NCBI GenBank assembly: GCA_041690135.1
Contig: JAWLHY010000019.1
Coordinates: 32,001-96,000, forward strand
DNA from: Armatimonadota bacterium
GTDB lineage: Bacteria; Armatimonadota; SYMT01
Length of the DNA stretch: 64,000 bases
Direction: 5' to 3'
In this document: positions 45,061 to 47,438 of the stretch, one piece after another
Position numbering within the stretch: the first letter of the stretch is position 1
Layout: each line of letters starts with the position of its first letter
The notes under the pieces: model-generated
The model's database searches: none
Seen by the model: the letters and a program-made list of their open reading frames with translations, nothing else
Told to the model about the DNA's origin: nothing
Position numbers and translations under genes: made by a program

Positions 45061-46332
45061 CTAACTCCTTGTCGCGGGCTCGTCCCGCAGGTTCTTGCGT
45101 AACTCTTCGTGGATCGAACTGTTGGTGGCCAGCAGCGATTGGCCGTTTTCCCGGAGTGGGTACCCCTCAAAGTCCGTGAGCCGGCCCCCGGCCTGCTCGA
45201 GCACGAGCGCACCCGCGGCAAAATCCCATTTGCGCGTGGTATTCCGAACGAAGGCGTCGATGCGCCCGCAGGCCGTGTAGCAGAGCAGGCTGGCCGTCGA
45301 TCCCATCACCTTCACGCGCCCCTCGCATTCTCGGGCGACGCGCTTGAAGATTGCCAGGCCCTCTTCAAGCCGCTGGTGGCGATCGAAATAGCAGTTGACC
45401 ATCGCCTCGCGCACCGAAAGTACTTCCGACACGTGAATTTCCTCGCCGTTGAGCGTGGCGGGTTCTCCCTTCGCGGCCGCGAACAGTTCATCCAGGACGG
45501 GCAAGTATACCACGCCGATGGCCGGCTCGCCTTCCACCCACAGGGCGATGGAAACGGCGAAATAGGGCAGCCCGCGGGAGAAGTTGGTCGTCCCGTCCAG
45601 GGGGTCCACGATCCACTGACGCGGGGAGTTGTGTCCCGACTCCCCCGCCTCTTCAGACAGGATGTAGTCCTCGGGGTAGACCTCGCGCAGCCGTGAGAGG
45701 ATCTCCGCTTCCGCGGCCGGATCCGCATCCGTCAGCAGCGACCGGTCGCTCTTCTCCCGGACACTGAAGGAAGAACCACGGTACTCCAACAGGATCTCCC
45801 CCGCCGCCCGCGCCGCGGCAATCGCCGTGTCCAGCTCCGCTGCGAACCTGGGAGCCACAGATTTCACAGATTGGGAAGGATTAGAAGGGGACGGGAGCGG
45901 TGGAGGGCCAGTGCGGCGGAGTTTGGGCGCTTCCCAGCCAGGATTGTGTTTGTACCGCTGTTGTTGCAATGAGGCGGTTCCGAAGTTGAGGAGCAGCCCG
46001 ATTTCGCAACCTGTCGCTTTCAGGTAGTTCAGGATCTGGGCCTTCTCGGTGCCGGAGAGATGTTCCTGCGCCTTGAGCTCTACCAGGACGGTCCCGAAGC
46101 AGATCAGGTCGGCACGGTACTTCTTCTTCAGGCGCCGCCCCTTGTAGTGCAGTGCCAACGGCACTTCGTGCTGCACGGGAATACCTCGGCGCCGGAGTTC
46201 TATCAGGAGGGCTTCAAGATACACGGCTTCGAGAAATCCCGGTCCTAGCTGCCGATGCACCTCCATCGCAGCCCCGATGATGGCGTAAGTCCGTGGATCG
46301 TCCTTCTCCGAGTTGCTTTGCTGGGTTCTCAA
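45061..46332 (-). CDS. GxxExxY nuclease-like domain fused in frame to inositol monophosphatase
   Basis: LGPGFLEAVY, RADLIC, VELKA, GLLLNFG (GxxExxY); ILSEEA, WIVDPLDGTTNF, WDFAAG (IMPase). Confidence 0.9.
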   Translation of the reverse strand: MRTQQSNSEKDDPRTYAIIGAAMEVHRQLGPGFLEAVYLEALLIELRRRGIPVQHEVPLALHYKGRRLKKKYRADLICFGTVLVELKAQEHLSGTEKAQILNYLKATGCEIGLLLNFGTASLQQQRYKHNPGWEAPKLRRTGPPPLPSPSNPSQSVKSVAPRFAAELDTAIAAARAAGEILLEYRGSSFSVREKSDRSLLTDADPAAEAEILSRLREVYPEDYILSEEAGESGHNSPRQWIVDPLDGTTNFSRGLPYFAVSIALWVEGEPAIGVVYLPVLDELFAAAKGEPATLNGEEIHVSEVLSVREAMVNCYFDRHQRLEEGLAIFKRVARECEGRVKVMGSTASLLCYTACGRIDAFVRNTTRKWDFAAGALVLEQAGGRLTDFEGYPLRENGQSLLATNSSIHEELRKNLRDEPATRS

Positions 46333-46374
46333 CTCCCTCTCCTTCCTTCCAAATCTGTGAAATCTGTGGCTCCC
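45850..46374 (-). mobile_element. Putative 525-bp GxxExxY cassette with 31-bp TIRs and ACCT direct repeats
   Basis: Left GGGAGCCACAGATTTCACAGATTGGGAAGGA (45850-45880) and right TCCTTCCAAATCTGTGAAATCTGTGGCTCCC (46344-46374) are 30/31 inverted; ACCT at 45846-45849 and 46375-46378. Confidence 0.65.
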
Positions 46375-46382
46375 ACCTACTC

Positions 46383-47438
46383 TCAGTCTTGTAGAAGAAG
46401 GTCTAAGGCGGTGGAGCGGATATGGGAGTAGCGGTTGGGGTGGAGGTAGGGCGCGGGGCTGCTGCCGTAGAGGCGGTAGAGCATGGTGAGGGCGGCGTAG
46501 CGGCGGAAGCGGAGGGACCAGCGGGTATCCAGGGCGGGGGCGGTTTCGCGGTAGCCGGCTTCGATGGCGGACGCGGCCGCCTGGGCGGAAGGACGGAGGT
46601 TCGGGTCGTTCTCTCCCATCAACAGGTAGTGGCCGGCCAGGAAGCCGGGATCGTAGGCAGGGTCGGAGACGGCAGCGCCCAACTCGAAATCGAGCAGGAA
46701 TACCTCCCCCTCCGGTCCGACGCGCACGTTCTTCGGCGCCGCATCCAGGTGGGAGATCATCCCCTCCCGCTCCGCGGCGCGCGCCTCGTCATAGAGGGAA
46801 TGGGTCACCTGTTCCGCATCGGCCGGAAGCTCGGCACGCTGGAGAACCCCGGTTGTCCGCATGCGCAAGAAGCGGAGCCAGTTGGCGTGGTCCTGTTCGC
46901 GGGTTGGCCAGAGTGTTTCTTCCCCCAGGCGCACGGTATGCACGATGCCGAACAAGCCGGCCAGACGGTAGGCCGCCTGGGGATCGCACTGGTTCTTCTG
47001 GAGTGCCGATTGGAGGGAGGTGGTGCGTTCCCCGATCCGCAGCGTCCAGAGGATGTTGTTCCGTTCGTCATAATGGACGACCTGGGGAACCTTATGACGC
47101 ACGGGCTCCGGCAGGGCGGTACGGAGCGTCCGAAGTGCCCGGGCCTCGACCTGGATCCGGGCTGGGGACACATCGGAGAGGTCCTTGCCCAGGCGCTCAT
47201 GTTCTTTGACCCGCGAGAGCGCTTGTTTGAGAAACACGGATCCGGCAGGTACGTCTACCCGATAGACGTAGTTCATGACGCCCACGTCGAGATAGGTGAT
47301 TTCAGCCTCGTCCCACTCTCTCGGTAGTCCCGAATGGATTGCAACCCTTGTCTCGCGCAAATAGTTGCGGACTGCCTCCGGTCCCTCCGCCAGCGAGTGA
47401 ACGGGAACCCAGTCTGGACGGTCTATCCCGGCGTGCAT
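46383..47438 (-). CDS. APH/choline/methylthioribose-kinase-like phosphotransferase
   Basis: GVMNYVYRV, FLKQAL, SHLDAAPKN (Brenner-like), LLDFE. Confidence 0.8.
   Translation of the reverse strand: MHAGIDRPDWVPVHSLAEGPEAVRNYLRETRVAIHSGLPREWDEAEITYLDVGVMNYVYRVDVPAGSVFLKQALSRVKEHERLGKDLSDVSPARIQVEARALRTLRTALPEPVRHKVPQVVHYDERNNILWTLRIGERTTSLQSALQKNQCDPQAAYRLAGLFGIVHTVRLGEETLWPTREQDHANWLRFLRMRTTGVLQRAELPADAEQVTHSLYDEARAAEREGMISHLDAAPKNVRVGPEGEVFLLDFELGAAVSDPAYDPGFLAGHYLLMGENDPNLRPSAQAAASAIEAGYRETAPALDTRWSLRFRRYAALTMLYRLYGSSPAPYLHPNRYSHIRSTALDLLLQD

Follow-up and report, generated by a model that had tools for sequence, protein, structure and literature searches.

A GxxExxY gene between inverted phased-word arms, fused in frame to an inositol monophosphatase in an Armatimonadota operon

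Why does a nuclease-like gene lie between two inverted repeats in the middle of a biosynthetic operon, and why does its reading frame run without a stop into the next enzyme? The locus that raises this question occupies 45061–46382 (minus strand) of a 64,000-nucleotide stretch of an Armatimonadota genome (assembly GCA_041690135.1, contig JAWLHY010000019.1; the whole stretch is hereafter the window), where a block of ~530 bp carries a gene of the GxxExxY family (PF13366) ahead of an inositol monophosphatase (IMPase). On balance, we think it somewhat probable that this block is one resident copy of a widespread, apparently undescribed mini-cassette that is bounded by a hairpin and consists of a GxxExxY gene and arms of phased words. 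We infer that such cassettes are mobile and that the encoded nuclease has a role in their biology. A preliminary description of the locus had proposed an undescribed mobile element. Parts of that proposal stand, in that the layout recurs, the arms are dispersed, the argF–argG junction is found in several states and no published description emerged from the sources cited below, whereas a target-site duplication, arms private to the element and recent mobility were not supported.

Anatomy of the locus and its fused reading frame

Two arms of 32 nt, 97% complementary (31/32) and 463 nt apart, enclose the gene and confirm the inverted repeats first reported around the GxxExxY domain. Each contains two tandem CACAGATT words, 9 nt apart. 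The arm 30-mer has two sites only in the window, one in each arm, versus 0.00 expected from 100 shuffles. The parts of the locus are as follows.

46344–46375, minus strand: proximal (5′) arm, on the gene strand TGGGAGCC-CACAGATT-T-CACAGATT-TGGAAGGA, whose sense strand carries the purine-rich words
46333–46343, minus strand: purine-rich Shine–Dalgarno-like run AGGAGAGGGAG, separating the proximal arm from the TTG start
45961–46290, minus strand: GxxExxY / PD-(D/E)XK domain, residues 15–124, with the TTG start at 46330–46332 and D75, E85 and K87 intact
45881–45960, minus strand: C-terminal tail and Pro-rich linker (…YKHNPGWEAPKLRRTGPPPLPSPSNP), without a stop codon
45849–45880, minus strand: distal (3′) arm, whose translation contributes to SQSVKSVAP, with in-frame GTG codons at 45865–45867 and 45856–45858
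45061–45848, minus strand: IMPase part of the fused frame (PF00459, E 2.4e-63), with its stop at 45061–45063
45846–45849, no strand: ACCT, left copy of a proposed 4-bp duplication, judged to be chance
46375–46378, no strand: ACCT, right copy of the same, judged to be chance
46383–47438, minus strand: upstream kinase-like gene, whose TGA (46383–46385) lies 8 nt ahead of the proximal arm

The open reading frame (ORF; 45061–46332, minus strand) encodes 423 aa from its TTG start. PF13366 covers residues 15–124 (E 1.6e-39) and PF00459, the IMPase domain, residues 168–417; no stop lies between the two domains, and the frame passes through the distal arm, where it is translated as QSVKSVAPRFAAELDT, just as the preliminary description had read it. 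Contigs from two soil metagenome studies span the IMPase/arm/GxxExxY junction (X1 record 6, 243 nt with 5 differences; X2 record 13, 151 nt with 2 differences), so the junction is not an assembly artefact of this genome. A further X2 contig, with the same arms around 39 other letters, comes from a gene-less hairpin located elsewhere and was rejected as an excision product. In the predicted RNA fold, the arms close the cassette, the stem extends over the ribosome-binding region (z −3.8) and the Shine–Dalgarno-like run pairs with the Pro-rich linker region. Rfam has no match in 45500–46700.

The enclosed domain scores far above the cut-offs of its families (PF13366, 135.3 bits versus a cut-off of 22; TIGR04256, 146.3 bits versus 35, E 4.5e-43), and residues G32, E35, Y38, D75, E85 and K87 are all present and invariant in 46 aligned sequences. 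Top structural matches of the AlphaFold2 model (predicted local distance difference test score, 90.4) are all PD-(D/E)XK nucleases: the BpuSI nuclease domain (Z 8.2, root-mean-square deviation 2.7, 95 aligned), Cas4 SSO0001 (Z 7.9), the restriction-endonuclease-like protein 3ijm (Z 7.3) and Hjc (Z 6.8), with Cas4 first in Foldseek (E 3.4e-4). The fold, as modelled, is that of a PD-(D/E)XK nuclease, and its middling scores single out no subfamily. A sequence search of the PDB gave no match at E up to 1, PHROGs gave none and PADLOC matched no defence system, except that one of the three paralogs searched hit Cas4 weakly (E 0.0027); on the fused ORF, Pfam finds PF13366 and PF00459 only, and no HUH Y1 transposase domain. 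The nearest homologs are 60–72% identical and carry names from other phyla and the genome's own paralogs are 35–46% identical, a pattern that fits the multiple transfers of the family noted in the cited passages of PMC3424549, where its function is listed as unknown. The six GxxExxY genes of the genome contain 56–60% G+C, versus 65% for the genome as a whole.

What sets this locus apart is the in-frame capture of the IMPase; the GxxExxY genes in the genome's five other cassettes end before the distal arm. Such fusions are rare, because among the candidates scored (GxxExxY domain at E ≤1e-10) 29 proteins are long (232–741 aa) versus 5091 short ones (73–233 aa). Two of the 29, P0121 (420 aa) and P0122 (477 aa), share the PF13366+PF00459 architecture, with 68% and 78% overall identity; their linkers vary in length and are open, and an arm peptide, ..SVA.., is kept at the protein level. 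That three lineages have retained this in-frame fusion illustrates how cassettes of this kind can reach fixation. This copy is old, and would have been in place before the three fusion lineages split.

By contrast, the IMPase of G002, a member of the same taxonomic family and the only one of 61 genomes to keep the IMPase–SQHop-like–nucleotidyltransferase gene order, stands alone as a protein of 269 aa that begins at a TTG of its own, has the N-terminus MPFMMHDYEREL and is 63% identical to the fused IMPase. The fusion is therefore not universal, and the opposing picture considered in the preliminary description, of the same fusion everywhere with no empty site, is not what we find. At the kinase-like/IMPase junction itself, no empty site was found among the 61 genomes; the kinase homolog of G002 is on another contig, and a contig scan with the kinase protein returned no relative. 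This homolog aligns to residue 350/351, so the C-terminus of the kinase-like gene is whole. The kinase-like gene has weak NCBIfam matches, below cut-off, to MTR kinase and LxmK.

The caveat that removing the cassette would leave the IMPase without a start holds: once the block is deleted in silico, the IMPase frame meets a TAG 10 codons upstream, with no ATG, GTG or TTG following. If translation began at the first arm GTG (45865–45867), the N-terminus would equal that of the G002 ortholog in length, and P0122 has Met at the position of this codon (Val here). No Shine–Dalgarno sequence lies ahead of it. The N-terminal helix of the IMPase is probably translated, either by read-through translation that begins at the GxxExxY gene or by initiation at the arm GTG. 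Soil metagenome contigs 95–99% alike to this copy have four variant sites at 45829–45835, just downstream of the distal arm, and three of the four are synonymous in the IMPase frame, including a CTG to TTG change.

Recurrence of the layout, and its presence or absence at argF–argG

The genome has seven PF13366 matches, six full-length and one a fragment. All six full-length genes lie between inverted arrays, with arms of 32–54 nt that are 413–590 nt apart, and the fragment has no arms. Each cassette has its own word (CACAGATT, CGCAGAG, CGCCAAG/CGCAAAG, CGCAAAG/CGCGAAG, ACACAGAG and CACGAAA). For relatives, we started from 30 PF13366 loci of the 61-genome set and excluded two of this genome and three that were fragmentary (E >1e-10); one of the 25 remaining was too near a contig end, leaving 24 to be scored. 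The best inverted match of cognate flanks has a median of 20 for these loci versus 9 for 72 non-cognate pairs, and scores of at least 14 are reached by 21/24 loci versus 3/72 controls. The expectation that other GxxExxY genes would have flanking inverted repeats is thus borne out. In 28 cassettes taken together, 915 of 1035 arm positions form Watson–Crick pairs, and the word strand comes first and its complement second in 26. One of the two cassettes with the reverse arm configuration (G000:C5:238228-239155) has its GxxExxY gene between two gene-less CGCAGAG hairpin doublets, in the order arm, complement, gene, arm, complement.

The same data bear on whether two copies of a common dispersed repeat merely happen to lie around an ordinary gene. 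The repeat is indeed common in this genome, with 43 copies that lie mostly close to the ends of genes. However, only two inverted pairs occur among the 43, one of them being this cassette, and the other five GxxExxY genes of the genome have inverted arms of their own that differ from these; 21 of the 24 loci in relatives have such arms too. Chance flanking is refuted by these arms, and we put its probability at close to nil.

We also consider it very improbable that the block is a classical transposon with terminal inverted repeats (TIRs), a 4-bp ACCT duplication and GxxExxY as the transposase. The inverted repeats are present and ACCT does stand at both ends, as the preliminary description stated. 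It does not, however, lie wholly outside the arms: its inner base is the outermost complementary arm pair, so duplication and repeat overlap by one base. With arms extended to the last complementary base and direct repeats sought within 2 nt of both ends, the 28 cassettes have repeats of 0 nt (15 cassettes), 2 nt (8), 3 nt (3) or 5 nt (2), which matches the non-cognate control (56%, 31%, 10% and 0.8% for the same lengths; ~3% at 4 nt or more). Because no regular target duplication is found across the 28 cassettes, ACCT fits chance, a caveat the preliminary description had itself entered, and the element is not a classical cut-and-paste transposon. Removal of the block with one ACCT would, moreover, leave the IMPase without a start, and near-identical copies, as discussed below, are lacking.

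A junction occupied in some relatives and empty in others is found between argF and argG. G000, G004 and G005, which represent three genera, have a GxxExxY cassette there, in spacers of 549–703 nt. G006 keeps the outer arms (TTTTCGACACAGA...) in a 323-nt spacer with no gene, and the spacer of G001, which belongs to the genus of G006, is 27 nt long and free of repeats; the spacers of five more distant genomes are 16–78 nt. Orthologous copies of this junction are thus seen empty, with a hairpin that has no gene, and with a gene-carrying cassette. Both arms match within each cassette, with CACGGAG words in G004 and CACAGAG words in G000; because words agree within a cassette and differ between orthologous cassettes, the arms evolve in concert. 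The G006 spacer (contig C13) also contains a nested CGCCAAG-word hairpin, with a non-coding interior of ~190 nt, inside the outer ACACAGA-word arms. In G036, from another family of the phylum, a PF13366 gene lies directly upstream of argG (G036:C2:13790-15406); either the insertion is very old or this junction has been used more than once.

More broadly, arms and gene are linked across genomes. Each arm family of this genome has 4–36 further copies, versus one hit in total for 30 shuffled arms, and three-word CRCRRA arrays number 52, 32 and 18 at periods of 8, 9 and 10, versus 0–1 in the reversed control. The strict three-word pattern gives 9 word-then-complement pairs among 163 arrays. Among the 61 genomes, those with more PF13366 matches tend to have more arrays in excess of the reversed control (Spearman 0.76), a correlation against which genome size, as a possible confounder, and the non-independence of related genomes may count. 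At least 10 excess arrays are present in 18/25 gene-bearing genomes versus 3/36 without the gene, and in five taxonomic families with both states the gene-bearing genomes are mostly the richer. Exceptions are G002, G008 and G012, which have 10–28 excess arrays and in which no PF13366 gene was found.

Kindred systems and possible modes of action

By analogy, the intervening sequence (IVS) of 23S rRNA appears closest to the cassette in anatomy, and the system of repetitive extragenic palindromes (REPs), their doublets (REPINs) and REP-associated tyrosine transposases (RAYTs) closest in logic: the cassette is IVS-like in build and REP/RAYT-like in layout. The Coxiella burnetii IVS, in the cited passages of PMC4990558, has 428 nt, is called selfish, has a 28-bp terminal stem, an S23p ORF and tandem GACAGAT heptamers before the ORF, and is excised by RNase III. 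Like it, our cassette is a block of ~0.4–0.5 kb with terminal inverted repeats, a stem of ~28–32 bp (predicted here) and tandem 7-nt words, here CACAGAT, between the stem end and the start of a small ORF. Both lie inside a transcribed unit, here the putative operon, and a target duplication is not part of the IVS description in those passages. Several features set the cassette apart. Its cargo has a predicted PD-(D/E)XK fold (PF13366) rather than the four-helix S23p/PF05635 fold, its site is between two protein-coding genes rather than in helix 25/45 of 23S rRNA, its words have a period of 8–10 nt, its gene-less arms are dispersed genome-wide, and this copy has no stop and is fused to the next gene.

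Genes of the S23p family (PF05635) in the same genome are boxed in the same way. There are 10 PF05635 matches, and of the 8 above the family cut-off, which were scored (for example, G000:C2:458489-458806), 6 lie between inverted tandem-word arrays with scores of at least 19, versus 12 or less for 55/56 controls. The words of these cassettes are GGCAGAA, GAGTAA, GTTCGGGT/GTTCAGG, GATAAG and GACAATT. CRC..A-type words occur in 28/28 GxxExxY cassettes and 0/6 PF05635 cassettes; word class goes with cargo family.

With REP/REPIN–RAYT systems, as set out in the cited passages of PMC3116915, PMC3337134, PMC5581495 and PMC8266576, the cassette shares a nuclease-type gene between inverted short repeats that are also dispersed extragenically, largely vertical inheritance, long persistence and a repeat variant belonging to each gene copy. 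Unlike in those systems, the enzyme here is of the PD-(D/E)XK rather than the HUH Y1 (TnpA-REP) type, the arms are phased word arrays rather than a single palindrome with a GTAG/CGTC tag, the gene-less copies are mostly single arms rather than doublets, there are several paralogs per genome, and the pairing of protein and repeat is read from sequence. Miniature inverted-repeat transposable elements and TIR transposons resemble the cassette in their terminal inverted repeats, and small gene-less inverted doublets of 100–170 bp are present here, but there is no regular target duplication, arms and not interiors are conserved, and no recognised transposase is encoded. No description of a GxxExxY gene paired with inverted word arrays was found in Rfam or in the cited passages of the GxxExxY-family literature.

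The IVS precedent raises the alternative of a domesticated element that works purely at the RNA level. In this scenario, the arm stem in the operon transcript would be cut by RNase III or another factor, or would tune translation or stability; the cassette would no longer move as DNA, and the GxxExxY protein would be a passenger or act on RNA. The predicted fold, in which a stem closes the cassette, is compatible with this idea, as are the shared architecture and RNase III excision of the IVS (cited passages of PMC4990558), the position of cassettes in short spacers with the upstream neighbour on the same strand in 22/28 (by a crude open-frame call that is wrong at some high-GC loci) and long retention at two junctions. 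Yet sense-strand mismatches show no excess of G.U over A.C (42 versus 35). The scenario also leaves unexplained the presence and absence states at argF–argG and the link of arms to gene across genomes, a cut at the distal arm of this copy would yield a GxxExxY message lacking a stop codon and an IMPase lacking a leader, and the nuclease triad is invariant in 46 homologs. We therefore rate an exclusively RNA-level element as unlikely, if still worth serious thought.

For the mini-cassette that we favor, the following course can be proposed. The block would have entered the kinase-like/IMPase junction after the split from the G002 lineage and stayed there since. Probably transcribed with the operon, it would have displaced the IMPase's own start, and the IMPase would now be made as a read-through fusion or from the in-frame GTG codons of the distal arm. 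The element's biology may act on the paired arms, whether these fold as hairpin or cruciform DNA or as a stem in RNA. For example, the encoded nuclease may act on the arms, as a RAYT does on its REPs, and the transcript may be cleaved within the stem, in the way that RNase III processes the intervening sequences of 23S rRNA.

A wider proposal, which we offer tentatively as possible rather than probable, is that a single pan-bacterial family of mini-cassettes bounded by hairpins includes both the GxxExxY and the S23p-type IVS cassettes, as two classes that differ in cargo. The phased-word arms would be the substrate of copying or insertion at the DNA level, driven, for CRC..A-type words, by the small PD-(D/E)XK nuclease. 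If so, there would be several implications. First, these cassettes would constitute a new class of mobile DNA with REPIN/RAYT-like logic and a different enzyme. Second, the element would slip into gene junctions and could supply translation signals to a neighboring host gene. Finally, a host gene could become dependent on the element, as here. More generally, thousands of GxxExxY proteins are known with no assigned role, and the inverted phased-word arrays provide a concrete, testable substrate; the pairing of arms with GxxExxY links this family to the long-unexplained intervening sequences of rRNA.

Arms without the gene

The arms are not specific to the element. The 18-mer CCACAGATTTCACAGATT has 43 copies in the 9.1-Mb genome (≤2 mismatches; 29 exact), versus none for the reversed control, and relaxing the pattern brings the count to 61 copies, which fall into two subfamilies. 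By a crude gene call based on G+C at third codon positions, 22 of these 61 start ≤35 nt past the stop of a gene on the same strand, and the longer gap is usually on the repeat's other side. An inverted partner within 700 nt exists for 4/43 copies, namely those of this cassette and of one 165-bp doublet. Between copies, the arms are conserved and the interior is not. Small ORFs downstream of gene-less copies share no protein family. Rfam has no arm family, and ten gene-less hairpin loci gave only sub-threshold hits to microRNA precursors. In the species-genome collection, at least 124 stretches, from at least 10 phyla by record titles, contain the exact 18-mer, versus ~17 occurrences expected by chance (an arithmetic estimate). 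A third CACAGAT word is in phase in about half of 87 contexts, many of which are compact hairpins. The cassette type proposed here would explain a large share of the odd intergenic word repeats in many soil and aquatic bacteria.

An insertion can also consist of one arm alone. In G000, one CACAGATT array constitutes the entire 27-nt spacer between a GcvH-like gene and a P-loop gene (G000:C4:272671-272697), ending in GGAAAG before the ATG; in G005, the same two genes overlap as ATGA. Many repeat copies end in GGAAAGATG, as though the unit supplied a ribosome-binding site and start codon.

This single-arm insertion invites another reading, in which the arms themselves are the mobile or functional unit, handled by the host or a trans-acting factor, and GxxExxY and S23p-type proteins are interchangeable cargo, such as addiction or defence genes. 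Two unrelated cargo families with the same layout in one genome would fit this reading, as would the gene-less outer arms and nested second hairpin of G006 and the independence of word type from the protein tree. Against it, word class tracks cargo in the 28 GxxExxY and six PF05635 cassettes, CRCRRA arrays are linked to PF13366 genome-wide, and PADLOC found no defence match beyond the weak Cas4 hit for one of three copies. We regard arms with interchangeable cargo as decidedly unlikely.

Several observations also weigh against the mini-cassette as we have described it. We saw no act of movement, and no contig joins across the block in the two soil runs, which cover 0.22 and 0.06 of the stretch. 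There are no near-identical copies: the six GxxExxY paralogs are 35–46% identical and their arms differ. This divergence, the fusion in two other lineages and the argF–argG cassette common to three genera tell against recent mobility. Because 39/43 CACAGATT copies have no inverted partner within 700 nt, most gene-less copies are single arms and not hairpins, and a GxxExxY gene lies within 900 nt at only 2/80 exact 18-mer loci of other genomes. Word type requires 19 changes on the protein tree, equal to the shuffle median of 19 (0.63 of shuffles need 19 or fewer; the tree has poor resolution and omits one short row), and its failure to follow the tree speaks against each nuclease reading its own word. 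Finally, the balance of G.U and A.C mismatches given above means that arm pairing is not visibly RNA-specific, and it counts against the mini-cassette as well.

Six repeat copies (C14:114503, C3:582982, C9:165906, C1:294732, C2:1090319 and C19:18860) share a downstream non-coding core of ~120–400 nt with 65–78% identity, in which no common ORF was found. The core includes ...gtcat(t/g)gcgaggagcg... and ...gccccctggtcaggg..., and it is bordered by runs of 8-nt words (GTTCAGGC/GTTCGGGT) and by CCTTATC-type runs.

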